Source: Spongiivirga sp. MCCC 1A20706 (GTDB taxonomy: Bacteria > Bacteroidota > Bacteroidia > Flavobacteriales > Flavobacteriaceae). From it: a stretch of 64,000 nt of DNA. The stretch spans positions 107,304 through 171,303 of the forward strand of contig NZ_JBEFZF010000002.1 of NCBI RefSeq assembly GCF_046524175.1, written 5' to 3'. Below are positions 9,469 through 28,577 of this stretch, piece by piece. Below the pieces are notes generated by a model. That model made no database searches and was not told the origin of the DNA. It saw nothing but the letters and a program-made list of their open reading frames with translations. Every line of letters starts with the position of its first letter. Positions within the stretch are counted from its first letter, which is position 1. Made by a program: the position numbers and the translations under genes.

Positions 9469-9487
9469 CATTTATGGAGCTTTAAGG

Positions 9488-9868: not shown

Positions 9869-11224
9869 TTAGAAATTTTTCTTAAACGACCTTGACAATG
9901 GTATGATTTCTTTATTCATTAGAACTAGGTAGTCCTTATTTATTTGTTTGATAAAGTTAGAGTTGACTATAAATGATCTATGACATTGAATAAAGTTTGG
10001 TGGTAGCTCTTCTTTGATTTTGCTTAACTTCCCCCTAACGAAATGGTTTTTCCCATTAGAAGTGAAAATATTCAAGTAGTGGTCATCTGACTTGAGATAG
10101 ATCAAATCTGAACTATAAATCTTGGTTTTATCTTTTAGAACCACATGATTTTTTATCACAATATTTTTAAGCTCATCAAGTTTTTGCAAGGTTTCGAATT
10201 TTTCAATTTTTAATGACCTAGACTTATTTAGATATTTTTTGTATCTGACAAAAACGATGATTAAAACAATGCTGATTGTAACCATTATTAAGAAAACAAA
10301 AATGTATCTATTCCTAAGGCGATTAATATTGTTATAAGCCTTTAAAAGACTTGCTTGGTTTCCTAAGTTTGGAGTTGTTCCGTTTTTTTTTAGTTCTTTC
10401 AATTCTAAATTTCTCAGGGCAATAGTCTTTTTTAGAAAGAAATACGCACTATCAATTTTATTTATTTTTTCATAGCTTTCTGTTAACCATTTTAAAGATG
10501 TTATTTGAACTGATTTCACCGTATCACGAGCTATATGTTTTTTTAAATATGGAACGGCTTTTTCATATTGTTTGTTAGCTAGATAGTTTAACCCAGTGCC
10601 CAAATCAATACTTTTTATTCCAGAATACTCATACCAAATAGGGTATTGTTCATATATTTCAGCTGCTATTGAATAGTGATGTGCTGCATTATCATACTCT
10701 TTAAGCCAATGGGATAAGTAGAATGCCAAAAGTTCATGATACATCCCCCTCGCAACACTTTTTTCACCGGAATATTTAAGCATTTGATCAAAACTTAATG
10801 ATACTTTTTCTTTACTGATACCGTCAGTATAATTCTCGGTAAAAATCAAACTAACGACAACAATTTTATAACTACGACGAAACTCTTCTGGTTGGAAATC
10901 ATAATATTTATTATTGGGAGAATAAAGAGTTGGTGAGTTTATTTTAAACCAAACTACTTTGTTCAGTGAATCACGAACTGAGTCTGTTATGTAATCTATG
11001 TTATTGTCTAAATATCCAAGGAGGTCAGAATACCTTAGACTTATTCCATAACCAGAGTTTAATGAGTCTCGTATTTTAAAATAGTCTAAGGAATCCTGTT
11101 GTTTTTTTGTAAGAGTCTTTTGGTTTTGATATGGTTCAACTAACCTTTTTGAATTTAAATTAGTGTTATATAAAACAGATGAAAGAAATAATCCTAAAGC
11201 ATAACCAGTTAGTAACTTAAACAT
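9869..11224 (-). CDS. Transmembrane one-component regulator: periplasmic TPR-like sensor region, one TM helix, cytoplasmic LytTR DNA-binding domain
   Basis: N-terminal signal/TM. Internal TM IFVFLIMVTISIVLIIVFV. C-terminal DDHYLNIFTSNGKNHFVRGKLSKIKEELPPNFIQCHRSFIVN is the LytTR signature. Confidence 0.75.
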   Translation of the reverse strand: MFKLLTGYALGLFLSSVLYNTNLNSKRLVEPYQNQKTLTKKQQDSLDYFKIRDSLNSGYGISLRYSDLLGYLDNNIDYITDSVRDSLNKVVWFKINSPTLYSPNNKYYDFQPEEFRRSYKIVVVSLIFTENYTDGISKEKVSLSFDQMLKYSGEKSVARGMYHELLAFYLSHWLKEYDNAAHHYSIAAEIYEQYPIWYEYSGIKSIDLGTGLNYLANKQYEKAVPYLKKHIARDTVKSVQITSLKWLTESYEKINKIDSAYFFLKKTIALRNLELKELKKNGTTPNLGNQASLLKAYNNINRLRNRYIFVFLIMVTISIVLIIVFVRYKKYLNKSRSLKIEKFETLQKLDELKNIVIKNHVVLKDKTKIYSSDLIYLKSDDHYLNIFTSNGKNHFVRGKLSKIKEELPPNFIQCHRSFIVNSNFIKQINKDYLVLMNKEIIPLSRSFKKNF

Positions 11225-11251
11225 TAAATAAAGTTAGATAATTAATTAAAA

Positions 11252-12910
11252 TCAGTTTTTATTTTTTAGAGACTTAGCTTTCCCTAAGTTATAGGTTAAT
11301 CCAAAAAATTGTCCGATACCAAGCTTTTCAACAGTAGGAATAGTCTCATTACTTGAAAATTGGTATCTGGTGTTTCCATCAGCGACAAATGAATCTTGAA
11401 TTGTAGTTGTTCTACCAACAGATATTCCATAATGAAAAACAAAACGAGACATTTTCCCAACAATGAAACCGCCTCCTAGCAGGAATTGAAATTTTTGTTC
11501 ATCAGTAAACATTGCTCCAAAGCTAAATGTTGGTTTAATCCATGTGCCGGTTCTATAAGATAGGTTGGCAACACTTCCAAAACCATAATTTAGCGAACCT
11601 AAATTTTTTTCATTTATAATTTGATATTCTTCATTTACACCGTTAAATTCTTCTGACATAGTTTGTATTGAGTATTCTTTGTTTGTCAGGGTAGATAAGA
11701 AGACACCAGCGCTGATATCAATTTTAAAACCACCTTTTATCCATATGTTATATTTTTTCTCATCTAAAAACGAGCTACTCTCTTTCTTAGCTCTTCTTTT
11801 CAATGTAAATTCCAATGCGTCAATATTTTTTCCGTCAAACTCATAAGGCAGAGTGTAGTGTTCAGTTTTAAATGAATACAATTTATCAATTGACTTGGAT
11901 GCTAACTCTACCAGAGGGATAAATTTGTTTTTTAGGGTTTCATTAAATAAGCCTGAATACTCTATATTTAAAGTATTTTCAGCCTTATGAGTGACTTTAT
12001 TGGTAGCATCAATAATGGCATCATATCTTTTTTCTAACGAGGTTCTTTTGTCCTTGTGTTTTTCAATAATTAGGTAATCTTTTGCCTCTAATTCGGACAA
12101 ATACAATTCAGCTTCTTTATTGACTTTTCTCATTCGAATGGAATTAGCTTCAATTTGTAATCTAAACCCTCTAAATTTTGCTTTGTTATCTATTTTTTCT
12201 TGCTTTTTTGCCTTATCATTAATTGGCTTTAAATCATTTTGAAGGGTTTCATATTTTTTATTTAAATCTTCTTTTTTTCTCCTATTTTGTTCTAAAGCAA
12301 TTTGTCCTTTTTGAATTTTTTGATTTAACTCAGATATTAAATTTTCCTTATCCTTGATTAATTTTTTGTTAGTGCCAATTAAACTCTGAATTTCAAAGTC
12401 AAAGCTTGTGTATTCAATTAGTTTTGTCTCACTGCTTAATTCTTGATTTCTAACCTTAATCTCTGAGATTTCATCACTCAAATTTGAGACAGTAGTTTTT
12501 AGCGTATCAATCTTCGAAGTGAAAGCCTCTATAGTTGTTACCCCGTTTATGGCTTTCCCTGCCTCTGACTCTTGATCAGTTGGTGAAGTTTTTTTTATCA
12601 AATCAATAACCCCCTCTTGTTTTTTTTCAAATCTTGCTTTTGAGTCTGAAAATAGATCTAAAGTTTTTTTATTGAGTTCATAGGTATATTTAAATGGATT
12701 TGCATTTTTTAACTTGAATGCCAAAAGTTGATTCGTTTTCACACTCAGCTTTTCTTTCAAACAGTCGGCTGAATCGTTTTCAATACAAATACTAGCAAAG
12801 CTATTAACTTTTGGGCTTGCCATGTCTAAAACAAAAACCTTTGTTTCTTGACAATAACTCTGAACACTAAATAAGATGAAAATAACAGACAATGAAATAC
12901 GTATAATCAT
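11252..12910 (-). CDS. Secreted coiled-coil protein with a beta-rich (possible outer-membrane barrel) C-terminus; hypothetical
   Basis: Signal peptide MIIRISLSVIFILFSVQSYCQ, long Lys/Glu heptad-rich centre, Gly/aromatic-rich C-terminal third. AT-rich codon usage. Confidence 0.55.
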   Translation of the reverse strand: MIIRISLSVIFILFSVQSYCQETKVFVLDMASPKVNSFASICIENDSADCLKEKLSVKTNQLLAFKLKNANPFKYTYELNKKTLDLFSDSKARFEKKQEGVIDLIKKTSPTDQESEAGKAINGVTTIEAFTSKIDTLKTTVSNLSDEISEIKVRNQELSSETKLIEYTSFDFEIQSLIGTNKKLIKDKENLISELNQKIQKGQIALEQNRRKKEDLNKKYETLQNDLKPINDKAKKQEKIDNKAKFRGFRLQIEANSIRMRKVNKEAELYLSELEAKDYLIIEKHKDKRTSLEKRYDAIIDATNKVTHKAENTLNIEYSGLFNETLKNKFIPLVELASKSIDKLYSFKTEHYTLPYEFDGKNIDALEFTLKRRAKKESSSFLDEKKYNIWIKGGFKIDISAGVFLSTLTNKEYSIQTMSEEFNGVNEEYQIINEKNLGSLNYGFGSVANLSYRTGTWIKPTFSFGAMFTDEQKFQFLLGGGFIVGKMSRFVFHYGISVGRTTTIQDSFVADGNTRYQFSSNETIPTVEKLGIGQFFGLTYNLGKAKSLKNKN

Positions 12911-13845: not shown

Positions 13846-15330
13846 TTATTTAAAATCCAAAATCCGAATACACTCATTAATTCTTCCTTCAAGAACTTTC
13901 TTATGTTGCGGATATCCAATATAAAGTTGTTTAGCTATTTCTGCTTTTTCCTTTGCTAACCTGAGACTTTTATTTTTGTTGGATCTCATATAAAGTAAGG
14001 CAAAAGCTAAATAAGAATCTGCTAACCTAGCCGCAGAGTTGACATCAGGTCTTTTGCTATTAATATTAGTTAGAATTTCTATAGCATCTTCGTAAAAAGT
14101 TTTTGCGTTTTTATAGTCATTTAGATCAGTATGAATCATACCTAAAAAATGTAGATTATTTGCATATCCAACCTTATCAAACGTGCTTCTGAGAGGTAAT
14201 ATTTGCTTAAAATATTTGTCAGATTGTAAAAAAAACGATTTAGCTTTCTTAAATTCCTTATTTCCTTTAATTACAATAGCGTAACTAGATAATATTGCAG
14301 CGTATCTTAATTTGTATATATATTCAGATTTATTGGGATAATGATTTAGTATTTTTTCTGCTTTTTTAAAATATACATCTACTAATTCATAATTTTTCTG
14401 ATGACCAAAATGATTTATTGAAGATATAATAGTTGTCATTAGTTCACTAAAATATGTGTTGTTTTTTTTGTAGGCTTTTTCTTTTAGTTTTAGTGCATTT
14501 AGAAGATAATCTTCCTTATTTGTAGCAATTTCAAATTCTATATTTGGGTTATTTAAAAGCGCAAATATATTTTGATTTATTGCCCCTAATTCCGCATCAT
14601 ATCCTTTATTATTATTTTCTTTTTTTAATTTATTATAAATATCTATCGCCTTTTGATAATTATGGAACGATTTTTCACCTAAACCTTTTGTCCTGTAAAA
14701 TATACCTAAATCCCTTAAGGTTTCCGCTTCATTTGCTAAGAGAAAGTTATCCTTATTAGAAATTTTACTAAAGGATGCTAGGGATTTTTTAAGATATGGT
14801 TCAGGATTTCTTTTAGTAGAAGCTAACCCTTGTAGAAATATATGTCCAATATAAGAGTTAGCGATTGCAATAATTTTATGGTCAAAAACTTCCTTTAGAA
14901 CAACTTCAAAAGAACTCAAAGACTCATTATACTCTTCTGAGATAAAATGAGCTATTGCCTTTTGAGTATTTGAAGCATTTTTGGATTTGGATTTTTCGAG
15001 AAATAACTTCAATCCTTTTATATCTAAGTTATATTGATTTTGTATATATATTTCAAATGCTTCATCTGGGTTGTTTATATCTACATCATTTTCTTTGAAA
15101 TATCTTGCTAACCCTAGAAGGGGCTTTAATTCTTTAAGAGTTTTGTCTTGTTCTTGGTTTTTTGTAATACCATTATTTCGATATAAAAGTCCCGCAACAG
15201 CTGCAATTACCACACAAATAAAAATAATCCAACTTAACATTTTTTGATTTTTGCTTGAATTCATAGACACAAATCTAAATAAATTGTTATTAAAATAGGC
15301 ATACAATTCGGTTGCCAGAAAAGTTGACAA
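13846..15330 (-). CDS. TPR-repeat protein with N-terminal membrane anchor
   Basis: TM WIIFICVVIAAVAGLLY followed by multiple degenerate 34-aa TPR-like repeats (..AIDIYNKL.., ..AEKILNHY..). Confidence 0.6.
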   Translation of the reverse strand: MSTFLATELYAYFNNNLFRFVSMNSSKNQKMLSWIIFICVVIAAVAGLLYRNNGITKNQEQDKTLKELKPLLGLARYFKENDVDINNPDEAFEIYIQNQYNLDIKGLKLFLEKSKSKNASNTQKAIAHFISEEYNESLSSFEVVLKEVFDHKIIAIANSYIGHIFLQGLASTKRNPEPYLKKSLASFSKISNKDNFLLANEAETLRDLGIFYRTKGLGEKSFHNYQKAIDIYNKLKKENNNKGYDAELGAINQNIFALLNNPNIEFEIATNKEDYLLNALKLKEKAYKKNNTYFSELMTTIISSINHFGHQKNYELVDVYFKKAEKILNHYPNKSEYIYKLRYAAILSSYAIVIKGNKEFKKAKSFFLQSDKYFKQILPLRSTFDKVGYANNLHFLGMIHTDLNDYKNAKTFYEDAIEILTNINSKRPDVNSAARLADSYLAFALLYMRSNKNKSLRLAKEKAEIAKQLYIGYPQHKKVLEGRINECIRILDFK

Positions 15331-15432: not shown

Positions 15433-15642
15433 GTTTAAAATAGAAAGCGCCAGTATTGCTACTGGCGCCAACTTGAGTAAGACAGGGGAACTGCAGTTTA
15501 ACCAACCGCATGATAGATCATGGTAAGCGGAATAAGCATCAACATTGCAACGAGCAATACGTTTAATAATCTTACAAAATTTAAAAATCCGATTCGGTAG
15601 AATGTGTTTAACGTGTTCATAATAGTATGTTTTAAAAAGTTA

Positions 15643-17589
15643 TTATTGTCCTATTTGGTTAAATGATGATGTGTCGATTGCATTAGGGTTAGAGGCTTCA
15701 ATTTGAAAAATAGCATCGTTAAAATCGTTGTCTCCGTTAGGTACTGAAATGTCTTCGAATGCAATGACCGTAGACTGACAGGTTTGATCGTAAAACAGAA
15801 TACTTTGCTGTCGTCCGCTTAAATTAAAATTGATGTCGGTGTGTTGAGAATAATATCCATCAGTGATACTTCCGTTTCTCCATCCGTTGGCGATCAGGAA
15901 AAATCCAACTACCGTACCTGATTCAAAACTACCTAGTAATCGCATTGTATTACCTCGAATGAGTCCGCCACCGGATCCTTGTGCCGAAGCATTTGGAAAT
16001 ATGACAGTTTTATCCAGGTCATTTACACTTGCCGGAGGATTATCCTGATTATAGGTATAGTAGCCTAGCACATTTTTATACCCTGCGCCTTCATCAATAA
16101 ATGTTAAGTATAGATCGGTTTCTTCACTTATATATAATTCTTTTACTGGGTTTGTAAAGTACTCGGGATGTGCTTGCATCGCATTTTGTCGTTCCGGAAG
16201 AACATTTTGGTAGATATTAGGGAGTAATGTACTGCACACTTCAACATCTTCTTCCATTCCGTCTGGCACTCCTTTTTCATCATAGGTAGTAACCGTTTTG
16301 TATTCGTCCTTTTCTCTTTTGCGCAGAATTTTGAATCCGCCACCACCTTTGGCAACAAAAACCCATTCACCATCAGCCATGATAAAGTTAGCAGAGGCGT
16401 CATCTTCCTGCATATCCCAGAAAAATACCGGATTTATTTCTTCGCCTTCGACCGTAGGGTGCTTCGCAATAGCAATACCGTCTGCACCATTGGCCATATA
16501 GATATAGTCATTATCGGTAGTAATTCCGTTTGTATTACCAACAACTAGCATTAACCCTTCAGATTCATTTAAGATCGTGCCAGAATTGACATCAACATTG
16601 GCCAAACCATACTTGCCCTTAGCGACATATAGTTGATTACTATGTATTGGGGAAAATTCCATCGTAGATTTACCGCGATATGTTTCTACTACATTTTGAT
16701 GAAAAATGCTGCCTATAGGAAAGCTAGTGGTATTCAATGCATCATTTACATCGGCAACCCTTATAAAAGCCTCATCTCCTGTGATCAGACTTGCTACTTT
16801 CGAGTTGTCGGAATTAAGCGCCAAGTACTTCGCATTGGCATATACTTCGTGGTCTAAGGCATTGAGATTATCCTTATTTAGAATAACGGTACCACCATGT
16901 GTTTTTCCCGAAGTGATATAGATATAATTATCAGTAGAAGCAATACCATTTGCTGAGGCAGAAACTCCTGAGTTTTCAAATACATTTGACAAATTAACCC
17001 GTTTGAAATCGGAGTTGAACTGCCCATTTGTTGTTGTGAGTTCAAATAATTGAGCTCCGTGCACATTATCCGACATGGCAGTCCAAATTTTCCGCAGACT
17101 ATTTGATCCTTCAAAGTCAGACGTCAACGCATTGACATCGGCATTATTAAAGTAAACCTGACTTATTATTTCAGGAAAATTAGGATTGGAAAGATCAATG
17201 ATTTCAACCGCACCCTTGTGTAAATCACCTTGCTTGTGATAGCTTACATATGCCTTGTCGTCAGCCAAGGTAATATGTGTCGCGCTTAGGGTAAACCCTC
17301 CAAGAACCAGAGGGTCTACTTCTGCAACATGCTCCCAGAAGTAATTTTCTTGCGCACCATTTACTTTAGCGGTTGAAAATTTTCCGGTCTTTGTTTTTAC
17401 AACTGGTTTAATAGTGGCAGTTCTATTAATAAAACGCAGCCGTTTTGTTAACTCATTTCTGTCATTGTTTACCGAAAAAGGATTTTCATCGATTGGTGCT
17501 TCAATTAATTCAGCTGTATTTTCTTCTGTACTACAACTTAGGAATCCTATAATAAGGACTATTTTAAATAGTATTTTTACTGTCTTCAT
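15643..17589 (-). CDS. Lipoprotein with LVIVD-type beta-propeller repeats and a C-terminal DUF4114-like region
   Basis: Lipobox IGFLSCS. Repeated ..YIYITSG.., ..YIYMANGADGIAIAK.. motifs. C-terminal GFFLIANGW...DGYYSQ...NDFNDAIFQIE. Confidence 0.55.
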   Translation of the reverse strand: MKTVKILFKIVLIIGFLSCSTEENTAELIEAPIDENPFSVNNDRNELTKRLRFINRTATIKPVVKTKTGKFSTAKVNGAQENYFWEHVAEVDPLVLGGFTLSATHITLADDKAYVSYHKQGDLHKGAVEIIDLSNPNFPEIISQVYFNNADVNALTSDFEGSNSLRKIWTAMSDNVHGAQLFELTTTNGQFNSDFKRVNLSNVFENSGVSASANGIASTDNYIYITSGKTHGGTVILNKDNLNALDHEVYANAKYLALNSDNSKVASLITGDEAFIRVADVNDALNTTSFPIGSIFHQNVVETYRGKSTMEFSPIHSNQLYVAKGKYGLANVDVNSGTILNESEGLMLVVGNTNGITTDNDYIYMANGADGIAIAKHPTVEGEEINPVFFWDMQEDDASANFIMADGEWVFVAKGGGGFKILRKREKDEYKTVTTYDEKGVPDGMEEDVEVCSTLLPNIYQNVLPERQNAMQAHPEYFTNPVKELYISEETDLYLTFIDEGAGYKNVLGYYTYNQDNPPASVNDLDKTVIFPNASAQGSGGGLIRGNTMRLLGSFESGTVVGFFLIANGWRNGSITDGYYSQHTDINFNLSGRQQSILFYDQTCQSTVIAFEDISVPNGDNDFNDAIFQIEASNPNAIDTSSFNQIGQ

Positions 17590-17936: not shown

Positions 17937-19256
17937 TTATAAGCCTGCTTTCTTTGCTTGGATAGAAGATTTGTAAGGGTTCCATGTATCTTCAAAAGAC
18001 CGCTTAAAAAAGAATTCTTTATAGTAGGCAGCTGTACGAACGATTCTTAAGTATGTGCCAGTATAAATGGTCATCAAAGAAACATATGGCCATAAGTACA
18101 GTTCTTCTTTTCTGCGTTCTGAAAAAACGTAAATACTACACATTTGCACATAGCTCATTACAAAATATAGGGTAAAGTTCATGGGAATGACAAATTGCAG
18201 TTGACTGCTGTAATTAACAATAATATCAATAATGTAAAACCACCATAGTATATCAAGTACTACATTGTAAAATACATTTTCGGCAAGCGAAAAGAAGGTC
18301 GACCAGTTGAAGTTAGCGTTGGGGAAGTATACATCTTTGTGTTTGCGAACTCTAAATCGTATGATCGATTTATCCCAGCGCAATCGTTGTTTGGTTAATA
18401 CTTTAAATTTGGAAGGCGCATTGGTTAAGCAAATAGCACTGGGCTCAAAACAAACTTTATAACCTGATTTTCTAATTTTAACGGTAATGTCTCCGTCTAA
18501 ACCGGGGCCAATATCCCAACCTCCTATAGCATCAATGACATCTGCTCTAAAAGCGCCAAATGCTCCTGAAATAATTTTATAAATTCCTAAATATGAGGTG
18601 ATGATTCGGCCTACTGAAACGGTTTTTAGATACTCAATTGCCTGCAATCTGGCGCATAAACTTTCCTTATAATTTCTAACTTTTACATTGCCACCCACGG
18701 CTGCAATTTTTTCGTTCATGTAAAAAGGAACCAATACATTTTCGATAGCATCATAATCAAAAGAACAATCGGCGTCAAGATGTACAATGTATTTGCCGCT
18801 ACTATATCGCAACGCTAAATTGGCAGCAGAGGCTTTACCTCCTCGCATTTCGTTTCTAATAAATTTATCGATTAAACCTAGGCGTTCTAAGTTTTTACCG
18901 ATAATTGGGGTGTCATCGTCAGAGCCATCATCAACAATAATGAGTTCAAAGTTTGAAAAAGTTTGTTCTGCTAATGATTTTGTTAATTTGTAAAGATGTT
19001 TTCCTTCGTTCTTACCCGGAATTATAACTGAAACAAATGGATTTTCAAGACGTAATAATTGCCTGGCTTTTTCGAATTTTTTAGCGCGCTTTTTTCTGTT
19101 AATCCAAAATATTAATGCCACTATATAATCAATAATGATGTATCGGGTAAACTCAAACAAAATGAAATACCAAAAAACCCGAATGAATTTTGGTAACCCT
19201 ACTTCATTCCAATAGTTAATATATTCAGGTACTATATTTTCTAATTGTAATGACAT
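17937..19256 (-). CDS. Processive family-2 glycosyltransferase (membrane-embedded polysaccharide synthase; PgaC/NodC/HasA-like)
   Basis: VSVIIPGKNEG...LIIVDDGSDD (DxD) ...QRLRW (QxxRW processivity motif). TM helices at both ends. 439 aa. Confidence 0.85.
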   Translation of the reverse strand: MSLQLENIVPEYINYWNEVGLPKFIRVFWYFILFEFTRYIIIDYIVALIFWINRKKRAKKFEKARQLLRLENPFVSVIIPGKNEGKHLYKLTKSLAEQTFSNFELIIVDDGSDDDTPIIGKNLERLGLIDKFIRNEMRGGKASAANLALRYSSGKYIVHLDADCSFDYDAIENVLVPFYMNEKIAAVGGNVKVRNYKESLCARLQAIEYLKTVSVGRIITSYLGIYKIISGAFGAFRADVIDAIGGWDIGPGLDGDITVKIRKSGYKVCFEPSAICLTNAPSKFKVLTKQRLRWDKSIIRFRVRKHKDVYFPNANFNWSTFFSLAENVFYNVVLDILWWFYIIDIIVNYSSQLQFVIPMNFTLYFVMSYVQMCSIYVFSERRKEELYLWPYVSLMTIYTGTYLRIVRTAAYYKEFFFKRSFEDTWNPYKSSIQAKKAGL

Positions 19257-19260: not shown

Positions 19261-20643
19261 TTAGTTGAATTGTTTTAAAATATCATCAATTGTTTCACCT
19301 GATTTAGGCTGATGTGTTTGGATATTAATAGCTAACAACTGCTCTTGTAAATTATCACCTAGAAGTTTTCCTAAGTTATATTGAATGGTTTCAAGGCGTT
19401 GAGGTAGTGGTTCTTTTGTGTCGGGCAGTAATAGGTAATATGAATTATAAGCGTCTGCGGCCAAAACATCACTTGGTAATAAATAGGATTGAATAATTGT
19501 TCCTATTTCCTTTACTAATGCCTTTTTTGTGTCATCATCAAAATGACCTAAGCGGTTGTTTTCAAAACGGATAGAAGCCATTTGACTTGTTGCTTTACTT
19601 ATAGTTATTCTTTTTAACTCTTGTCCTGCAATAATTTTAAACAAAGACAAGGTCATTATGCCATCGGGAGAAATAGATATTTGGCTGTTTTGTTGCACAT
19701 TTCCTAGTAACCATTCTTCTCCTAACGATGTGATACTGTATGTGCCAATGGTCTTTTTTATTAAGGCGGAAAGTTCATTTTCCGTTTCGCAATCAATGCA
19801 TTTAGCCACCATATTCGGTGTTTGAAATTCATGGTTACAACAGTTGCAGTTATACATGGATGATGGCTTGTCATAATCGATACCAATATGCCTTAATTGC
19901 TTATCGCACTTAGGGCAAGATAATCCCTCTTTTGTTTTAAAGTCTTTTTCCGGGGCAACATGGGCACAAACGAAGTGATGTACAATGTCTTGTGCTTTGA
20001 TATCGATACTATCACACTTAGGGCAGGTTTCAATAAAATTCAAGTAATTACCGTGACAATTTTTACATAAATGAACATGGTCATGTAGTTTCATCGTCAG
20101 ATGACCAGATGCCACGCTTTTTTCAAGCATTAATAATTTAGGCAGTACTTCCTCCTTTTTATAAAAAAGATCAATTAATGGAAGGATATACCCAATTAAG
20201 CTTGTTCTATCTGCAATCGGTTCTATTGGATGATTTCTGGTGAAAAGAAAAGCCAAGATTTTGTATTGCAATTGGTCATCGTGGGCTCCATTTTTTGTAA
20301 GCGATATCCTTTTAAGACGCTTGCTGATCACGTCAATACGGTTGACAGCTATTGGGAGCTGATCGATATCAATATATCCATCAGTATGTATGCCAACAGT
20401 CTTATGTAATTGGCAAGTAGCGTTTATAAAAATGGGTTTTAACGCAATTGCCAAATCGGCGTTTTTGCGAATATGAAAGACCAAGTCTGTTGCATGTTCT
20501 TTGTTTTCCGTGTTGATAATAACAGCATCGATATAGGTTAAAGGCTCATGCAGCAGCACCGATAGGTGATCAACTTTTAGCATGGTGTAACCTGAGAACT
20601 GAATCTTATTGGAACGGTCGTTATGTCGTAGAACATTTAACAT
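19261..20643 (-). CDS. Cys-rich protein with five Cys pairs (zinc-ribbon-like); possible TackOD1-like output/regulatory domain
   Basis: CKNC...CPKC...CPKC...CNCC...CIDC within about 90 aa, flanked by non-membrane domains. 4-nt spacing to the GT2 gene. Confidence 0.6.
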   Translation of the reverse strand: MLNVLRHNDRSNKIQFSGYTMLKVDHLSVLLHEPLTYIDAVIINTENKEHATDLVFHIRKNADLAIALKPIFINATCQLHKTVGIHTDGYIDIDQLPIAVNRIDVISKRLKRISLTKNGAHDDQLQYKILAFLFTRNHPIEPIADRTSLIGYILPLIDLFYKKEEVLPKLLMLEKSVASGHLTMKLHDHVHLCKNCHGNYLNFIETCPKCDSIDIKAQDIVHHFVCAHVAPEKDFKTKEGLSCPKCDKQLRHIGIDYDKPSSMYNCNCCNHEFQTPNMVAKCIDCETENELSALIKKTIGTYSITSLGEEWLLGNVQQNSQISISPDGIMTLSLFKIIAGQELKRITISKATSQMASIRFENNRLGHFDDDTKKALVKEIGTIIQSYLLPSDVLAADAYNSYYLLLPDTKEPLPQRLETIQYNLGKLLGDNLQEQLLAINIQTHQPKSGETIDDILKQFN

Positions 20644-20676: not shown

Positions 20677-22041
20677 TTAAAGCGACATATATACGCTTGC
20701 AGGGATTTTATCTTTCATATTCCCTTTAATATCAAAGATGATGGCGTCGTCTTTTGCATTTTTCAACAAATCGAAATAGCCTAAGTCTTGATAATCTGTA
20801 TGATCAACGGCTAGCACGATCGCATCAAAACGTTCAGAAGTGCTTTTAGTAAGTTCAATCCCATAATGCTGCTTTACTTCATCAGCATTAGCCATATAAT
20901 CTTGTACGCAAACTTGAAATCCTTTTTCTTTTAGAGCAAGGCAAAGTTCAGCAGCTTTTGAGTTACGAATATCATTGACGTTTTCTTTAAAGGTGATTCC
21001 CTTTACCAGAATAGTGTGTTGCTTTTTTTGCAAACCGTTTCTATATACTCGTTTACTAATTTCGCTTACAATATGTGGAACCATACTTTCATTGACTTTG
21101 CGAACTTGTTCAAGAAGTTTGGGTTCGATTTTATGCTGCTTTGCTTTATGAATTAGATAATAAGGATCTACACCAATACAATGACCTCCGACTAAACCTG
21201 GATAGTAGTGATGAAAATTCCACTTACTTCCTGCAGCTTCTAAAACTTCTTTTGTATTAATATCCAATTTGTTAAATATCTGAGAAAGCTCATTCATTAA
21301 ACCGATGTTTACATCTCGTTGAATATTTTCAACAACTTTTGCGGCTTCTGCAACTCGAATGGTAGCTGCCCGGTATACGCCCGCTTTCACAGCACTTTCG
21401 TAAACATCAGCAATAACTTCTAAAGCTTCTGGAGTACTTCCGGAAACGATTTTCTTAATACTTGTAAACGTATGTTGTGTATCCCCTGGATTAATTCGCT
21501 CAGGAGAGTATCCGATGGTAAAGTCTTCATTATATTTTAGGCGTGAAATACGCTCTAAAATGGGTACGCACACTTCTTCTGTACAGCCCGGATATACGGT
21601 AGATTCGAAAACAACACAATCGCCCTTTTTTAAATGACGAGCTACGGTAGCAGTAGCAGCCATTATCGGTCTTAGGTTCGGTTTTTTTAAATGATCTATA
21701 GGAGAAGGTACCGCTACAATATAAAACTTTGCGCTAGCCAGTACCTTATCGTTTGCACTAAAAGCAATGTCTTTTCCTTTAAATTCGTCAGCGGCTAGTT
21801 CGCCACAGGGATCTTGATGTTGTGCAATTTGAACAACTTTTTCTTCGCTAATATCAAAACCTACTACCTTAAAGTGAGCAGCCATATGTACCGCTAAAGG
21901 AAGCCCTACATATCCCAGACCAACGACAGCGATTTGTTCTTCTTTGTTTTTTAGTTTTTTGAAAAGATCACTTTGCTTGTAACCAAGTGTAGGTTGATCA
22001 AAATCATTTACATGTAGGTTGTATTTTAATTGTGTGTTCAT
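20677..22041 (-). CDS. UDP-N-acetyl-hexosamine 6-dehydrogenase (TviB/WbpO/Cap5O family nucleotide-sugar dehydrogenase)
   Basis: IAVVGLGYVGLPLAV Rossmann motif typical of the UDP-HexNAc dehydrogenase subfamily. GGHCIGVDPYY catalytic-Cys region. Confidence 0.85.
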   Translation of the reverse strand: MNTQLKYNLHVNDFDQPTLGYKQSDLFKKLKNKEEQIAVVGLGYVGLPLAVHMAAHFKVVGFDISEEKVVQIAQHQDPCGELAADEFKGKDIAFSANDKVLASAKFYIVAVPSPIDHLKKPNLRPIMAATATVARHLKKGDCVVFESTVYPGCTEEVCVPILERISRLKYNEDFTIGYSPERINPGDTQHTFTSIKKIVSGSTPEALEVIADVYESAVKAGVYRAATIRVAEAAKVVENIQRDVNIGLMNELSQIFNKLDINTKEVLEAAGSKWNFHHYYPGLVGGHCIGVDPYYLIHKAKQHKIEPKLLEQVRKVNESMVPHIVSEISKRVYRNGLQKKQHTILVKGITFKENVNDIRNSKAAELCLALKEKGFQVCVQDYMANADEVKQHYGIELTKSTSERFDAIVLAVDHTDYQDLGYFDLLKNAKDDAIIFDIKGNMKDKIPASVYMSL

Positions 22042-22169: not shown

Positions 22170-23222
22170 TTAGCGGAAAGTCTTGTTTAATGAAATGGAA
22201 ACGTTTAACATATGATAAGCTCCCCAGCGATCTTTCTGTTCCGCTCGCAAAGGGATTATTTCTGCAAGAATATTTCGTTCTGTGGGCTCATACTTTTTCT
22301 GGAATTCTATAGGAGCCGTATAAGTGGATACATATAATTTATTAATAACCCCTTTTTCTTTTGTTTGATCCGGAAATAGTATATCGACGATGTCCCCCTC
22401 GTCAAGATGTGCCGCGTCTTTAAGATCAAAATATCCTTTTATAAATACTTTTTCGGTGTTGTGTATGGTCATTACCCGCTCTCCTTTATAACAAGACTCT
22501 TCTCTATTTTTGTGAATTTGACCAATAATACCATTAATAGGAGATAGGTAACTGCTTCTATGGCTGGAATAACCACCAGTACTTAGGTCGAAAATAGTAG
22601 GTTGTGTTGCGTGATTATTGTTGTTTCTTAATAGGGAAGTCTGGGAAAGCAAAAAACGTATCTCGTTATTAAGCAATGAAATCTTGTTTTTGGCAAGTAG
22701 AATTTGATTCCTAATCCCTTCTAATTTTTCTTTGGTATACACATCTAATAACACCAGTTTTATCATCTTTTCTAGTTGTTGATCTAACTGATTTGTATGA
22801 TTGTATAGGTTGTTTCGTTCTATTCTCTTTTGGGCTATTTTGAAAGCTAAATCCTGCAAGGCATCATTTTTTTTCTCGTTTTTCCCCTCAGATCGTAATA
22901 AGACAGCTGCTTCATTGTCAAACTCATTTTGTTGATATGAAAATAGGTTCTGATCTATTTGTACGGAATCACCTTCTTGAACAGATAGTTGTTTAATCCG
23001 AATATCTTGTGTAAAATTTACATCTATTTTATCCATAACAACCATACCATTTGCTTTAACGATAGCCACTTTGGTATATAGATATTTTGCTAAGAAACCA
23101 AAGGCGATTAATACAAGAATAAAATATACTAACCTATCGAAGTTGAATTTCTTCTTCTTCACTACCGGTTCTTTAAGGGTTCGAATCTTTGCGGTTTCTT
23201 TTTGATAAGAAAATGTCCTCAT
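22170..23222 (-). CDS. HlyD-family periplasmic adaptor (membrane fusion protein)
   Basis: N-terminal TM LVYFILVLIAFGFLA, long coiled coil, C-terminal beta-barrel-like region. About 350 aa. Confidence 0.75.
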   Translation of the reverse strand: MRTFSYQKETAKIRTLKEPVVKKKKFNFDRLVYFILVLIAFGFLAKYLYTKVAIVKANGMVVMDKIDVNFTQDIRIKQLSVQEGDSVQIDQNLFSYQQNEFDNEAAVLLRSEGKNEKKNDALQDLAFKIAQKRIERNNLYNHTNQLDQQLEKMIKLVLLDVYTKEKLEGIRNQILLAKNKISLLNNEIRFLLSQTSLLRNNNNHATQPTIFDLSTGGYSSHRSSYLSPINGIIGQIHKNREESCYKGERVMTIHNTEKVFIKGYFDLKDAAHLDEGDIVDILFPDQTKEKGVINKLYVSTYTAPIEFQKKYEPTERNILAEIIPLRAEQKDRWGAYHMLNVSISLNKTFR

Positions 23223-23226: not shown

Positions 23227-24753
23227 TTATTTTTTAGAGATTAATTCTAACTCGTTTGAAATCAAGTCTTTTAAAAAAACAGCATTAGGAGTTGGTTGTT
23301 CAAATGAGACCTGGATGCCTTCTTTCTTCAGTAGGTTTTCAAAAGCACCATCTTGAAAGGTCATCTGAATACGTTGTATGTTTTTCGCTTTTAGAAATTG
23401 TAGTTGTAGTCTTTGCGAAAAAGAACTTTTTGTAATTACCACAGGGTCTAAACTAATACCTGTGTTGAATGCAACAGATGAGATAAATTGATGAATATTG
23501 GATTCCGGACTAAGCTCGATAATATGAGAAACAATCGTATACAATTGTTTTTTTAGCTGTAATACATTTTCTATAATATCATATTGCTCCTTAGTATACT
23601 GTAACAAAAGTAAACCGCAGTTATAGGTATTTAGTTCTTCCTTTATAATTTGGGTGATGGTTTTTCGCTGTTGGATGATCAACCATTTTTTATGAAGGGT
23701 GTATAGATCGTTAATTTTTTCTTGATGTGCATTTAAATAAGTGACAAGCTGATTCTGTTTACCCACTAATCGATCATCTTCTTGAGCAGTAGCTTGTTGT
23801 ATTTTTGTTTGAATAATTTTTTTCCGATTGTTAAAACGAATAGGAGCACTGAATCTGGCACCAATTAAAGGGCTACTAAATTGCCTCGTTATGGTCTCCG
23901 TCCAGTTATAATTAGCATAAATCGAAAACTTAATGTCTCTGAATGCTCGATTTTTTAGCTTAATAATGTGTTGCTTCCATATTTTTTTGTCTTCGTTTTT
24001 AGGCGATTTGAAAATATCATCTTTATTTAAATCAATCTTTATTAATGGAAGTTTCTCATTTAAGAACAATGCAGGAATACTATCTGCTACATGATCTTGA
24101 TAAAATTGTATTTGCTTAGATTGTTCTCTACTGTTATATAACTCATTAGATATTTTGATAACCTCTTCTCTTTTGATCATTTTTTGAGAGTAGAGTTCAT
24201 TTAAAATGTCAAAGTATTTTTCTAGAAATTTACTTTTGCTTGTATAATGGTTTAAGAGTTCTTGATTAATAGCATAATTGTAATGCAACCGAAATTGGCG
24301 CCGCCAAATAATTTTGTTTTCTCGCTCTAAAGCGTCATTCAATAGTTGTTTTTCGAGTAGCGCGGTTGTTGCTTTCGTTCTATTTGCAAAGAATCCGCCC
24401 TTTAATATATCCCATTCTAATTCCGCATTAAATCTAGATACCGTTATGTTATTTGTTTCATCATCAAGAACTCCTTGGAAATTGCGATAGCTATTAGCTT
24501 TTATTTGCAAGCCCCAGTCTTTTTTGTATTCATTTGATTCTAAATCTTTTATTCTTATTTCATGCCATGTAGGACTAATGGAATCAAGCATTTTGAAAAT
24601 ATCAAAGTTGATATCTTCATATGAATAAGGAAAATGAAGGAGCGTGTTTGCATCCTGATAAATAACATGACTCTTCATCAGCAAAGAGTCAATTTCTTGG
24701 GGTTTAGCTAATGTAGAGACTAGTAAAAGTGCTATGAAAATTGGGGCTTTCAT
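23227..24753 (-). CDS. TolC-like outer-membrane factor
   Basis: Signal peptide. Repeated helix/strand architecture with ILKGGFFANRTKA, compare the TolC LFDGG motif. Confidence 0.55.
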   Translation of the reverse strand: MKAPIFIALLLVSTLAKPQEIDSLLMKSHVIYQDANTLLHFPYSYEDINFDIFKMLDSISPTWHEIRIKDLESNEYKKDWGLQIKANSYRNFQGVLDDETNNITVSRFNAELEWDILKGGFFANRTKATTALLEKQLLNDALERENKIIWRRQFRLHYNYAINQELLNHYTSKSKFLEKYFDILNELYSQKMIKREEVIKISNELYNSREQSKQIQFYQDHVADSIPALFLNEKLPLIKIDLNKDDIFKSPKNEDKKIWKQHIIKLKNRAFRDIKFSIYANYNWTETITRQFSSPLIGARFSAPIRFNNRKKIIQTKIQQATAQEDDRLVGKQNQLVTYLNAHQEKINDLYTLHKKWLIIQQRKTITQIIKEELNTYNCGLLLLQYTKEQYDIIENVLQLKKQLYTIVSHIIELSPESNIHQFISSVAFNTGISLDPVVITKSSFSQRLQLQFLKAKNIQRIQMTFQDGAFENLLKKEGIQVSFEQPTPNAVFLKDLISNELELISKK

Positions 24754-25010: not shown

Positions 25011-25712
25011 TTACAACAAATTCAACCGCTTTCTAAGTTCTGGACGATTTGCACGACTCACAGGTATGATATCTTGTTTAATAAGAACGCTATTATCTTC
25101 GATATCGATAATTTTATTGGTATTAATTACGTATGATCGATGTACTTTTAGGAATAGCGTATCAGGTAGTTTTTCTTCTATTTTCTTTAAAGTCGAATGA
25201 ACAATGTAATTTTTTTGTTCAGTTTTGATATTGATATAATCCCCTTTGGCTTCGACTAAATAAATATCAGGAATGTTTATTTTAACTAAACGACGATCAA
25301 TATTCACAAAGAGGTCATTGTTATTATCTTGTTTCTCGACTGAGGTTTTTTCTTCACTTATGGTTGTTTGCTCAGCTTTTTCAATCGCCTTTTTAAACCG
25401 CAAGAGTTCAATAGGTTTTAGTAAATAGTCAACAATACAATCATATTCAAAAGCTTGTATGGCAAAATTGGCATCAGAAGTTGTTAGTATTATTTTAGGA
25501 GGGGATTTTAATGTCTGAATAAAATCAAAACCCGTAAAATCGGGCATGTGAATATCGAGAAAAATCAGATCGATCTCATTTTGATTTAGGAACTTTATGG
25601 CTTCTATAGCATTTGAAAATTCAGATACCACCTTTAATTGTGATATTTGATCACATAAATGGTTAATAATTGCTCTAGCGGTTGCTTCATCATCAATAAT
25701 TATACAATTCAT
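25011..25712 (-). CDS. Response regulator, receiver (REC) + LytTR DNA-binding domain
   Basis: MNCIIIDDE...LIFLDIHMPDFTGFDF (REC). C-terminal LVEAKGDYINIKTEQKNYIVHSTLKKIE...VHRSYVIN (LytTR). Confidence 0.85.
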   Translation of the reverse strand: MNCIIIDDEATARAIINHLCDQISQLKVVSEFSNAIEAIKFLNQNEIDLIFLDIHMPDFTGFDFIQTLKSPPKIILTTSDANFAIQAFEYDCIVDYLLKPIELLRFKKAIEKAEQTTISEEKTSVEKQDNNNDLFVNIDRRLVKINIPDIYLVEAKGDYINIKTEQKNYIVHSTLKKIEEKLPDTLFLKVHRSYVINTNKIIDIEDNSVLIKQDIIPVSRANRPELRKRLNLL

Positions 25713-25720
25713 AGTGTAGG

Positions 25721-26041
25721 TTAAAGTGTATTTAGGTAGTTTTCTATGGTATTTAATAACTTTCTAAAGCGATCATTCAAGGAGGTATTTTCATTTTTAA
25801 GGTCGTTTTCGAAGTTTTTGGCCAACACGTAACCTTTTTGCAAACCAAGAATATTGATTTTATGCTTTAGTTTGTGTACCTGTTCTGACGCTTTGTTATA
25901 TTCAGATGATTGCATATAAATAGCAAACTCAGCACGTTCTTCAGGAAATTCATTTTTCATAATATTAATGAGCTTTGTCTTGATACCTAAATCTCCTGCA
26001 GCAAGCTCATTAATATAATTAAGATTGGGTGTTTCACTCAT
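25721..26041 (-). CDS. Histidine phosphotransfer (Hpt) protein
   Basis: 106 aa. HKLKHKINILGL fits the Hpt HxLKGxxxxLG phospho-His motif. Overlaps the kinase stop by 4 nt. Confidence 0.7.
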   Translation of the reverse strand: MSETPNLNYINELAAGDLGIKTKLINIMKNEFPEERAEFAIYMQSSEYNKASEQVHKLKHKINILGLQKGYVLAKNFENDLKNENTSLNDRFRKLLNTIENYLNTL

Positions 26042-27630
26042 TTTTTAATGGTAAAGTAAAAAGTACTGCCTTCACCCACTTGCGAAGTAAGCCAAATTCT
26101 ACCACCATAAAAATCGACAATTTTTTTGACAATTGACAATCCTATTCCAGTTGAATTATCCTCATTTTCAAGACTTTGAAAAACATTAAAGATCTTTTCG
26201 AAATACTTTTTTTCAACACCTATACCGTTATCTTCAATAGAAAACTCCCAAAAACGTTCTTTTTCTTCACAGCTAATTTTGACAACGCCCTTTTGTTTGT
26301 CATTGTATTTGATGGCATTACTTATTAAGTTTTGAAAGAGCTGTTGCAGTCTAAACTCATCCCCTTGAACAGTTGGTAGCGTATTCGTTATTTTTACTGA
26401 TATATGCTCTGGTACATAAATGACCTCAATAACATCCTGTACAATCTGGTTGAGGTTAATACTATAAATTTTCTTTTCAATTCGGTCTACACTGGCATAC
26501 TCTAGCACTCCATTAATTAGTTGGTCCATTTTATCTACTTTTTTATGCAACATGTCAAAAGTAGTATTGGCTTTTTTATCGAAGACATCAGCATAGTCTT
26601 CTTGTAACCAAGAAATTAGGCTACTAATACTTCTAAGAGGTGATTTTAGATCGTGCGAAACGATGTGAGCATAATCGTTTAGCTCTTGGTTACTTTTTTC
26701 CAGATCGCTTAACAGCTGTTTTTCCTTTAGTTGTTGTTTAAGCTGTTCGCTCATGTCTTCAATAAGTGCAACCTGATACTTTATATTTCCCAAATCATTT
26801 CGTACGGCACTTACACTTGTTTTGGCCGTTAAGATGCCTCCGTCTTTTTTACGGTATTTTTTTTGAATGGTGAAATTATCAATATCTCCATTATTTAGGG
26901 CTTCCATTTTTTCTTTAGAAGCATTGTATTCATCTTTGACAGAAATGTCTTTAACCTGCATTGTATTTAGCTCATCAGCAGTAAACCCTAATAACTGTTG
27001 AAAAGCACTGTTTGTTTGTAAAATTTTTCCATGTTGTGTTAAGGCAATCCCTAAAGAAGAGTTTTCTACAATAACACTTAACTGTTTTTTTTGCTCTTCA
27101 AAAACTTGTTGATTTTTAACCTGCTCTGTAGTATCTCGTACGATACCTTGTGCGGCTATGGGCTCTTTTTTAGCGTTGAAGACTAAACTGGCATTAATTT
27201 GCACATTTCTCACCTCCCGTTGTTTTGTATATACCCTGGCATTGTAGTTGGTAAAAGCACCTTTTTTCACTAGTTCTTGAAAAGACTTCATCGCATAAGG
27301 GATATCTTGCTTGTAGATAAGACCAACAACGTTTAAAGGTTCTTTGTCAATATCATACCCGAACAGTGTTTTTGCAGCATCATTCATTTTAAGGACATCA
27401 CCAGATAAGTTCATAACCACATAGGCGTCTACAATATTTTCAAAAACACCTTGCAACTCTGAAGTTCGTTCGCTTACTAAACTTTCGAGCTTTTCATTGG
27501 CCGTTCGGAGCTCTGTTGTTAATTGAAATAGATCAGAGGCTTTTTCTTCAAGTATTTTTTCAGCTTGTTTCCTAGCATTCTTTTCTCGGGCTAAAGCACG
27601 TTTTAATATGTCTGTTTCTTTGGACATCAA
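26038..27630 (-). CDS. Soluble PAS-domain sensor histidine kinase
   Basis: HisKA H-box SHDLKSPLRSI. HATPase N/G boxes (NAIKYN..., DNGIGV, GTGIGLSIVKK). PAS-like repeats. No TM helix. Confidence 0.85.
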   Translation of the reverse strand: MMSKETDILKRALAREKNARKQAEKILEEKASDLFQLTTELRTANEKLESLVSERTSELQGVFENIVDAYVVMNLSGDVLKMNDAAKTLFGYDIDKEPLNVVGLIYKQDIPYAMKSFQELVKKGAFTNYNARVYTKQREVRNVQINASLVFNAKKEPIAAQGIVRDTTEQVKNQQVFEEQKKQLSVIVENSSLGIALTQHGKILQTNSAFQQLLGFTADELNTMQVKDISVKDEYNASKEKMEALNNGDIDNFTIQKKYRKKDGGILTAKTSVSAVRNDLGNIKYQVALIEDMSEQLKQQLKEKQLLSDLEKSNQELNDYAHIVSHDLKSPLRSISSLISWLQEDYADVFDKKANTTFDMLHKKVDKMDQLINGVLEYASVDRIEKKIYSINLNQIVQDVIEVIYVPEHISVKITNTLPTVQGDEFRLQQLFQNLISNAIKYNDKQKGVVKISCEEKERFWEFSIEDNGIGVEKKYFEKIFNVFQSLENEDNSTGIGLSIVKKIVDFYGGRIWLTSQVGEGSTFYFTIKK

Positions 27631-28166
27631 AGTCTTTTAATATTAAACCTTACTTCGGTTCCGTCTTTGGCTATATTTTCCGTATCGATACTACCTTTTT
27701 CATCAAAATGAAGAAATGTTTTGCGCATTAATCCAAGCCCAAACTGATGTAAAGCCCTGTTCGATCGGTAGATCATTATGAGGGAATTTTCTTTTTTCTC
27801 AATAATTTCAAAAGTAGGTAATTCGGCATCAGGATATATTTTCCGCACCTCTACATGAATGTGATTTTCGATAGAAGAGAGCATTTCCAAAGGATCATCA
27901 TATAAAGCGATAAATTGAGGGTAATCTCTTTTAAGAACATCAAAAAAATGTTCTCCATAAACACAGAGTAGTTGATCAACTGCAATGGAAGTATTTTTAC
28001 TTAGATTTGATACTAAACTTAGCATTTCTGCGAAATCATAAGTGCCGACAGCGGTATATATTCCTTTTGATTTAAGATCAGATTCCTGAATGAGTTGATC
28101 GACCATTTCCAATCCGAATTTATCTTCAACAAGTTCTAAAAACTCTGTAAATACAATTCCTTTCAT
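27627..28166 (-). CDS. hnoX: H-NOX (haem nitric oxide/oxygen-binding) sensor domain protein
   Basis: Starts MKGIVF. Proximal His at residue 102 (ENHIH) and the Y133-x-S135-x-R137 haem-propionate motif (IYRSNR) at the canonical spacing. 4-nt overlap with the kinase gene. Confidence 0.85.
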   Translation of the reverse strand: MKGIVFTEFLELVEDKFGLEMVDQLIQESDLKSKGIYTAVGTYDFAEMLSLVSNLSKNTSIAVDQLLCVYGEHFFDVLKRDYPQFIALYDDPLEMLSSIENHIHVEVRKIYPDAELPTFEIIEKKENSLIMIYRSNRALHQFGLGLMRKTFLHFDEKGSIDTENIAKDGTEVRFNIKRL

Positions 28167-28577
28167 TTATAATTTAATTAGTTCGTTATTTGACCAATAC
28201 GCAACAGCAATTTTTATTTTTTCCTTGTAGTCTTCATAACGTAAAGGTTTTAATATGTAGCCAGCAATTCCGATGGTATAGCATTCTAAAATATCCGTTC
28301 GGTTATTTGATGTGGTAAGTATCATAGCCGGAATATATTTTAGGGCTGCGTTCTTTTTAAGAATTTTCAGAAATTCTGTTCCGTTCATCTTAGGCATGTT
28401 AAGATCTAAAAAGATCACATCGGGGGTTTTGTTTTCTTCTTGTAAAATAGTAAGAGCCTCTTCACCATTTTTTGATAGCGTTAGATTGTATTTTATATTC
28501 ATGCTATCCAGCACTCTTTTAAATTTAATAGTTTCTATTTCATCATCTTCAATTAATAAGATCGACAGTGTTTTCAT
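28167..28577 (-). CDS. Single-domain CheY-like response regulator (receiver only)
   Basis: LLIEDDE...VIFLDLNMPKMNG...ILTTS...GIAGYILKP. Confidence 0.85.
   Translation of the reverse strand: MKTLSILLIEDDEIETIKFKRVLDSMNIKYNLTLSKNGEEALTILQEENKTPDVIFLDLNMPKMNGTEFLKILKKNAALKYIPAMILTTSNNRTDILECYTIGIAGYILKPLRYEDYKEKIKIAVAYWSNNELIKL

Follow-up and report, generated by a model that had tools for sequence, protein, structure and literature searches.

TackOD1 was defined by 11 conserved cysteines, arranged as five CxxC motifs and one HxxC motif, and a resemblance to the Cys-rich insert of PriA and to double zinc ribbons was noted (PMC5847659, Galperin et al. 2018). The archaeal forms consist of TackOD1 alone, REC-TackOD1 or REC-wHTH-TackOD1 and are found in type IV pilus loci; the domain was also recorded in "some bacteria", with a function that "remains obscure" (PMC5847659). 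Our literature search, with most subscription journals outside its reach, found no later papers mentioning TackOD1.

Cytoplasmic accessory proteins encoded together with a synthase-dependent exopolysaccharide system are represented by PelD and BcsE/GIL. BcsE, from E. coli-type cellulose secretion, is a cytoplasmic regulator built on a degenerate REC-GGDEF tandem, with a RecA-like N-domain and no zinc-ribbon module; it binds c-di-GMP through a conserved RxxD, and the synthase BcsA carries a PilZ domain of its own (PMC7439463). PelD of the Pseudomonas Pel system is a membrane-anchored c-di-GMP receptor composed of a GAF domain and a degenerate GGDEF domain with an RxxD I-site, and possesses neither a receiver nor zinc ribbons. 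Export through a GT2 synthase, an HlyD-like protein and TolC has been described for the cellulose of cyanobacteria (Xcs) and the mixed-linkage glucan of rhizobia (BgsBA-TolC); in these systems c-di-GMP is bound by a domain of the synthase itself (PilZ or the BgsA C-terminus), and a separate cytoplasmic subunit has not been described (PMC13438883, PMC8892547).

We analysed a 64,000-nucleotide stretch of DNA from Spongiivirga sp. MCCC 1A20706 (Flavobacteriaceae), hereafter the window, in which a TackOD1 protein is encoded next to a GT2 synthase. We consider it probable, though well short of certain, that this protein is a dedicated cytoplasmic subunit, derived from a response regulator, that regulates or assembles the synthase post-translationally. 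An earlier note on this DNA, made from the sequence by itself, held that no such component is known in characterised synthase-dependent systems. This was too strong a statement: BcsE and PelD are cytoplasmic regulators of such a kind, and GT2/HlyD-like/TolC systems have been described. The window protein has the trait common to PelD and BcsE/GIL of being encoded with the exopolysaccharide system. The TackOD1 family and domain have already been named, so that their identification is not in itself new, and public databases already label relatives 'TackOD1 domain-containing metal-binding protein'. For the three-domain architecture and its pairing with GT2, HlyD and TolC, our literature search found no description, with most subscription journals outside its reach; a TackOD1 module serving as the cytoplasmic regulatory subunit of a synthase appears to be undescribed. 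The gene and its parts are as follows.

19261..20643, minus strand: ORF of the TackOD1 protein, ATG to TAA, 460 aa (ORF and translation)
20308..20607, minus strand: N-terminal domain, residues ~13-112, CheY-like fold without the receiver sequence signature
19732..20286, minus strand: TackOD1 domain, residues 120-304, a helical part followed by a zinc-ribbon core (Pfam PF18551)
19789..20067, minus strand: Cys cluster, residues 193-285, five CxxC and one HxxC
19861..19896, minus strand: motif LRHIGIDYDKPS, residues 250-261, between the second and third ribbons, including a D-x-D
19267..19650, minus strand: degenerate GGDEF-fold domain, residues ~332-459, with AYNSY for GG(D/E)EF, LPSD for RxxD and a shortened GHxxGD loop

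The 460-aa product matches, at 100% identity, a hypothetical protein recorded for Spongiivirga sp. MCCC 1A20706. The earlier note had described a soluble protein of this length with clustered Cys pairs, and the ORF, the motifs and hydropathy all agree with it; the hydropathy scan revealed no transmembrane segment, and the protein is predicted to be soluble and cytoplasmic. The gene lies on the minus strand, which had not been stated. A spacing of 4 nt had been given for its position between the dehydrogenase and the synthase. This holds on the synthase side, where the junction with the downstream GT2 gene (17937-19256) reads TAA-ttgc-ATG, and not on the dehydrogenase side, where the upstream gene (20677-22041) is separated by 33 nt. 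The same note had read the whole protein through its Cys array, assigning it to the TackOD1 type. The assignment stands, for the protein matched PF18551 over the full model (185.8 bits against a curated cutoff of 32 bits, E 7.5e-55, profile positions 4-188 of 188) and its Cys motif is the published one; TackOD1 is nevertheless only the middle third, and the receiver-like and degenerate GGDEF flanks had been missed.

Twelve of the 13 cysteines of the protein fall within the 93 residues from 193 to 285, in motifs starting at 193 (CKNC), 207 (CPKC), 223 (HFVC), 243 (CPKC), 266 (CNCC) and 282 (CIDC). Among 45 homologues (28-76% identity), 11 cysteines and H222/H223 were invariant, and in 131 cluster representatives (~23-49% identity) all of these positions were invariant or at least 90% conserved, so that the pattern is not a product of chance; the middle cysteine of CNCC, C268, was not conserved. 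Grouped by spacing, the 12 ligands of the five CxxC and one HxxC fall into 193/196/207/210, 223/226/243/246 and 266/269/282/285, which suggests three putative metal sites of four ligands each. The five CxxC pairs reported earlier are thus joined by an HxxC, and the array would form three ribbons, not five. Between the second and third of these, the R, H, I, G, D, Y, D, K, P and S of LRHIGIDYDKPS were invariant in the 45 homologues; in the 131 representatives D256 was invariant and most other residues were at least 90% conserved.

Conservation and acidity are both highest in the Cys cluster. Compared with the window protein, homologues had a median identity of 57% in the zinc-ribbon core and 24-30% in the flanking domains, and the family medians for the core were a pI of 5.5 and a net charge of -6.6. 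Zinc ribbons often bind nucleic acids, and we considered whether the protein might act as a transcription or RNA regulator of the operon with its ribbons as DNA or RNA readers. Weak matches to a Zn-ribbon nucleic-acid-binding protein, reverse gyrase and PriA (the Foldseek match of the Cys cluster being to PriA helicase 4nl8) point in this direction, as do the archaeal REC-wHTH-TackOD1 architectures (PMC5847659). Against such a role stand the acidity of the core, the position of the gene, which lies mid-operon, coupled to the GT2 gene, and not at a regulatory position, and the dedicated LytTR DNA-binding regulator adjacent to the operon; we regard it as very unlikely.

By profile and by the five CxxC and one HxxC, the window protein contains the same domain as the archaeal TackOD1 regulators, and REC-TackOD1 proteins occur both among those regulators (PMC5847659) and among some bacterial relatives. 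Unlike the archaeal proteins as described, the window protein has a degenerate GGDEF domain after TackOD1, and its gene is linked to those for a GT2 synthase and an HlyD-like adaptor. Its N-terminal domain showed neither a Response_reg (PF00072) profile match nor a conserved phospho-acceptor Asp. Sequence homology of this domain to receivers was considered and rejected: besides the missing Pfam match, hhalign returned a probability of 2.7% when the N-domain profile of the family was compared with canonical RECs from relatives, for which reason we call the domain receiver-like by fold only, a pseudo-receiver according to the model. The AlphaFold model of the whole protein, computed from the 45-sequence alignment, had a mean pLDDT of 88 and a pTM of 0.62, with the packing of the domains uncertain.

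An exhaustive profile search returned 2,385 clusters at 50% identity, 1,001 of them at E <= 1e-30; nearly all of the 2,385 are 440-490 aa long and cover all three domains. A canonical Response_reg precedes TackOD1 in 7 of the 131 representatives (about 5%). In four relatives (P0252, P0251, P0218 and P0228) it replaces the N-domain, scoring 67-84 bits and keeping the DD pair, the acceptor Asp, the Thr and the Lys-Pro, and three (P0205, P0244 and P0260) carry it as an insertion that separates the N-domain from TackOD1. These variants indicate that the architecture is that of a response regulator with TackOD1 and a dead GGDEF domain as its output; in the lineage of the window the receiver is degenerate. 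The order of receiver and then GGDEF is also that of PleD and WspR, whose phospho-acceptor residues are retained in canonical-REC relatives such as P0252. In contrast to PleD and WspR, the window protein has a 185-aa TackOD1 domain between the two and a GGDEF domain that, judging from its motifs, cannot make c-di-GMP, and its output is presumably protein contact rather than a messenger.

Structure comparison and the family profile both revealed a GGDEF (nucleotidyl cyclase-like) fold in the C-terminal domain, with diguanylate cyclases as the best structural matches and PelD and BcsE also matched. The family profile aligned to the cyclase DgcR placed AYNSY opposite GGEEF and LPSD opposite RxxD, and the GHxxGD GTP-binding loop in a 4-residue deletion. 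The fold emerged by these two routes only: the family profile matched PDB GGDEF chains at no better than E 0.017-0.3, the C-terminal domain searched alone as a single sequence found no match in the PDB, and the window protein had no Pfam GGDEF (PF00990) match at E <= 0.01, while the C-terminus of one relative (P0240) reached 19.1 bits, below the 23.8 cutoff. Across the 45 homologues the GG(D/E)EF and GHxxGD positions were variable, and the R position of the I-site was occupied by L, R, K or E in 7 sequences each, the D of RxxD being kept in 38/45. On account of the AYNSY and LPSD replacements, the loop deletion and this variability, the domain is judged to be catalytically dead, and it lacks a conserved I-site. 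A functional diguanylate cyclase and a canonical I-site receptor were rejected on motif grounds.

A dead GGDEF domain might still bind c-di-GMP or a similar cyclic dinucleotide and turn the synthase on, in the manner of PelD and BcsE. The GGDEF fold and the structural matches to these two proteins would suit such a receptor, as would the Arg found at the I-site in 7/45 homologues and the Asp in 38/45, and c-di-GMP controls most GT2 synthase systems. The window protein itself has LPSD in place of RxxD, with L, R, K and E in equal shares at this position across the family, and the GG(D/E)EF motif and the guanine-binding loop GHxxGD have been lost. Furthermore, a review reports diguanylate cyclases to be absent from Bacteroidetes, a statement made for the phylum and not for the Spongiivirga genome. 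Given the unconserved I-site and this review, sensing of c-di-GMP becomes less likely, and we hold the receptor explanation to be improbable; from its sequence, the TackOD1 protein is probably c-di-GMP independent. It is analogous to BcsE and PelD as a cytoplasmic regulator, and differs from both: we detected no sequence relationship to BcsE, whose RxxD is conserved, whose N-domain is RecA-like and which has no zinc ribbons (PMC7439463), and it shares neither the membrane anchor nor the I-site of PelD.

We then compared gene contexts from a pattern scan with one genome per species, which yielded 410 loci, and analysed the best 80. In 72/80 the TackOD1 gene was followed immediately by the GT2 gene, the remainder being mostly truncated contigs, and an HlyD-like gene was nearby in 78/80; the dehydrogenase was present in 50/80, a LytTR regulator in 38/80, the 508-aa protein of the operon in 35/80 and DUF4114 in 32/80. 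Among divergent relatives, including canonical-REC forms, a GT2 gene followed in 5/5. Searching in reverse from GT2, with homologues listed at 70% identity or more only, we found the TackOD1 gene directly upstream in 5/5 informative metagenome loci (8 returned) and in 3/3 independently chosen GT2 homologues, or 8/8 informative cases when pooled. The earlier note had named a complete lack of linkage to GT2 genes among homologues as evidence against its proposal; the refutation fails, because homologues are nearly always GT2-linked, and the pairing of the two genes is near-obligate. Median identity was 74% for GT2, compared with 34% for the TackOD1 protein and 36% for HlyD. No natural TackOD1-GT2 fusion was present in the best 80 of the 410 loci or in the 150 best representatives, which counts against the proposed synthase subunit.

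Measured from the TackOD1 stop to the GT2 start, the distance was -4 nt in 19 loci and -1 nt in 10; of the 58 scorable loci, 54 had values from -16 to +12, and an overlap of 1-4 nt was usual. This spacing carries the sequence signature of translational coupling, which would imply that the TackOD1 protein and the synthase are co-produced in stoichiometric amounts. Gene adjacency suits regulation no better than it suits a structural role, a chaperone role or substrate channelling. Stoichiometric production would also be expected of a constitutive assembly factor or structural subunit that folds, stabilises or localises the synthase-adaptor complex and receives no signal in the lineage of the window. 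Degenerate receiver and GGDEF sites leave no obvious input, and BcsE GGDEF* likewise scaffolds independently of the messenger. Set against this, the canonical-receiver relatives indicate signal-dependent use in at least some lineages, and three separately conserved domains seem more than a simple scaffold needs; we therefore judge a purely constitutive subunit to be rather unlikely. The surrounding genes are listed below.

28167-28577, minus strand: REC, signalling cluster (Pfam)
27627-28166, minus strand: H-NOX, signalling cluster (Pfam)
26038-27630, minus strand: PAS-PAS histidine kinase, signalling cluster (Pfam)
25721-26041, minus strand: Hpt-like protein, signalling cluster
25011-25712, minus strand: LytTR response regulator, signalling cluster (Pfam)
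25011..28577, minus strand: upstream signalling cluster as a whole (Pfam)
23227..24753, minus strand: divergent TolC-like outer-membrane factor, 508 aa, with a signal peptide (AlphaFold and Foldseek)
22170..23222, minus strand: HlyD-like periplasmic adaptor (membrane-fusion protein), HlyD_3 25 bits (cutoff 22.2), transmembrane residues 26-44
20677..22041, minus strand: NDP-sugar dehydrogenase, TviB-like (UDP-GlcNAc 6-dehydrogenase type), NCBIfam TIGR03026
17937..19256, minus strand: partner GT2 synthase, 439 aa, multiple transmembrane segments, DAD and QRLRW (QxxRW), Glycos_transf_2 and related Pfam matches
15643..17589, minus strand: DUF4114 lipoprotein-like protein, 648 aa, N-terminal hydrophobic segment followed by Cys (Pfam DUF4114)
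15446..15469, minus strand: terminator-like hairpin after the DUF4114 gene, 10-bp stem with 6 G-C pairs (consensus scan)

The synthase is only distantly PgaC-like, scoring 168 bits against NCBIfam PgaC_IcaA, far under the cutoff of 422. Its matches at E <= 0.01 were to GT2-family Pfam models alone, with no PilZ or other accessory domain, whereas BcsA carries a PilZ domain (PMC7439463) and the Xcs and BgsBA synthases a c-di-GMP-binding domain of their own (PMC13438883, PMC8892547). The dehydrogenase scored 383 bits with TIGR03026 (cutoff 190) and 409 bits with the TviB model (below its cutoff of 592). The 508-aa protein had no Pfam or NCBIfam match; its AlphaFold model (pLDDT 81) comprised two repeats of a hairpin plus a long helix, and Foldseek matched it to TolC, VceC, OprM and CusC at E 2.6e-11 to 1e-7 with a probability of 1.0, predicting a divergent TolC-like channel. 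The operon would accordingly encode an envelope-spanning TolC/HlyD/GT2 secretion system. The export logic is the one described for Xcs and BgsBA-TolC, from which the window operon differs by including genes for the TackOD1 protein and for a divergent TolC-like protein of its own.

The H-NOX, histidine kinase and LytTR cluster upstream probably controls transcription of the operon. An H-NOX gene lay within 10 kb in 23 of the best 80 of the 410 loci, and in one locus (L097) the trio of H-NOX, kinase and LytTR genes followed GT2 directly. CxxC...CxxC sites can be rubredoxin-like iron sites, and the 11 invariant cysteines and the His, taken with the nearby H-NOX genes, raise the question of whether the protein is a metal/thiol redox or nitric-oxide sensor, in which oxidation or nitrosylation of Cys-held Zn or Fe centres alters its grip on the synthase. 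The pattern is equally typical of purely structural zinc ribbons, as those who described TackOD1 suggested (PMC5847659), and H-NOX is missing near most loci and already has a kinase/LytTR output of its own. Such sensing is in our view unlikely. As a specific input mechanism, it is compatible with a dedicated regulatory or assembly subunit.

For that dedicated subunit we propose the following mechanism. The TolC-like channel, the HlyD-like adaptor and the processive GT2 would form an envelope-spanning, synthase-dependent exopolysaccharide machine, to which the UDP-GlcNAc-type dehydrogenase would supply an acidic sugar, so that the polymer would be expected to contain an N-acetyl-hexosaminuronic acid. 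The TackOD1 protein would descend from a receiver-TackOD1-GGDEF architecture of which, in the lineage of the window, the GGDEF domain is dead and the receiver degenerate. Made in stoichiometric amounts with the synthase through translational coupling, it may dock on the cytoplasmic face of GT2 or on the cytoplasmic tail of the adaptor by its conserved acidic zinc-ribbon core, and from there control the assembly or gating of polymerisation after translation. The domain identities, the loss of the catalytic and I-site motifs, the gene linkage and the canonical-receiver variants were observed directly, while physical interaction, this docking surface and a regulatory rather than purely structural role are what we infer. 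In relatives with a canonical receiver, phosphorylation would be the input, and transcription of the operon would be handled separately by the adjacent H-NOX, histidine kinase and LytTR system. The suggestion in the earlier note of a post-translational regulator or scaffold in place of a PilZ/c-di-GMP input is consistent with all of these findings.

A domain of obscure function thereby gains a specific, testable partner, in a family of ~2,400 clusters (50% identity) with GT2 beside it in nearly every context examined. If this reading is true, it adds a third type of switch for processive polysaccharide synthases, besides PilZ domains and GGDEF I-site receptors, and accounts for control of the biofilm matrix in a phylum from which c-di-GMP synthesis is said to be missing. 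Marine Bacteroidota, among them the fish-pathogen genus Tenacibaculum, would then have a widespread TolC/HlyD/GT2 exopolysaccharide system of their own, whose transcription apparently takes an input from nitric oxide (H-NOX). More tentatively, TackOD1 might be a previously unrecognised effector module that gates membrane-embedded polymer-secretion machines by direct contact and replaces the PilZ/c-di-GMP switch in Bacteroidota, its input being phosphorylation in some lineages and possibly redox, NO or metal at the Cys sites, or a ligand at HIGIDYDKPS, in others; this broader possibility, to which we give limited credence, would explain the placement of archaeal REC-TackOD1 regulators in type IV pilus loci.

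The limits of the operon were examined by consensus scans. The interval from the GT2 gene to the DUF4114 gene yielded no terminator-like hairpin, and the hairpin at 15446..15469 is the probable operon end, with DUF4114 as the probable last gene. Sigma-70 promoter matches were not above the shuffled expectation, using a consensus that is not suited to Bacteroidota promoters. A recurrent fusion of TackOD1 to a sugar-dehydrogenase C-terminal domain (P0152) may be a gene-calling artefact. The DUF4114 protein was 65-71% identical in most flavobacterial loci and 37-54% identical in more distant ones. With the dehydrogenase adjacent in no more than 50/80 loci, different lineages may make different polymers.

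A signalling cluster lies directly upstream of the polysaccharide operon:

25011-28577, minus strand: receiver, H-NOX, PAS-PAS histidine kinase, Hpt-like and LytTR response regulator genes

The H-NOX (haem-NO-binding) family match in this cluster has an E-value of 4e-40. In 23 of the 80 species loci (the best 80 of 410 TackOD1 loci, one genome per species), an H-NOX gene lies no more than 10 kb from the TackOD1 gene. At L097, a locus around an independently chosen GT2 homologue, the H-NOX/kinase/LytTR trio (6339-9685) sits directly 3' of the GT2 instead of upstream of the operon. This linkage suggests that transcription of the polysaccharide matrix system in Bacteroidota is nitric-oxide-responsive; our literature search found no description of such NO-responsive transcription for this Bacteroidota matrix system.

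Within the operon, two features stood out:

23227-24753, minus strand: 508-aa divergent TolC-like protein
19861-19896, minus strand: motif LRHIGIDYDKPS in TackOD1

The 508-aa protein gave zero matches in Pfam and NCBIfam searches, and its predicted fold (Foldseek E 2.6e-11) identifies it as a divergent TolC-like outer-membrane factor, differing from TolC in an extra C-terminal alpha/beta region (approximately residues 420-507). It represents a lineage distinct from the canonical OEP-family TolC, since Pfam readily identifies the canonical member at 45574-46932 of the same window. The TackOD1 motif, which includes D-x-D, was invariant in 45 homologues and is as conserved as the TackOD1 metal ligands; candidate roles are a ligand, metal or partner contact.

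Beyond the GT2, the following genes were observed:

15643-17589, minus strand: 648-aa lipoprotein-like protein with C-terminal DUF4114, next after the GT2
13846-15330: TPR protein with one TM segment, next after the DUF4114 gene
9869-12910, minus strand: second LytTR-domain protein (451 aa, C-terminal LytTR) and an adjoining 552-aa protein, a few kb beyond the operon on its downstream side

The DUF4114 protein was found in 32/80 of the same best-ranked loci. Its identity is 65-71% across most of the flavobacterial ones and 37-54% across those more distant, and its probable role is that of an extracellular polymer component or modifier. The TPR protein showed no conservation together with the operon. 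The 451-aa LytTR protein had no receiver match, and the 552-aa protein no family match.

A 669-aa metagenomic protein (P0152 / P0269), recurrent on at least four contigs, joins a UDP-glucose/GDP-mannose-type dehydrogenase C-terminal UDP-binding domain to a following full TackOD1 protein. Either the fusion is genuine and ties the regulator to the supply of precursors, or the same gene-calling artefact has recurred.

The window further contains:

36206-37594: RtcB-like ligase
39191-41791: 866-aa DUF4132/DUF7737 protein
42581-45342: sigma-54 activator response regulator and its histidine kinase, upstream of the efflux cluster
45574-61912, plus strand: OEP (TolC-family) gene, HlyD-family gene and two ORFs of ~220 aa, then five tandem paralogues

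As an array of MacB-type permeases, this last region is unusually long: the paralogues are ~800 aa each (796, 809, 794, 804 and 802 aa), and all three of those scanned carried duplicated MacB_PCD and FtsX permease domains.
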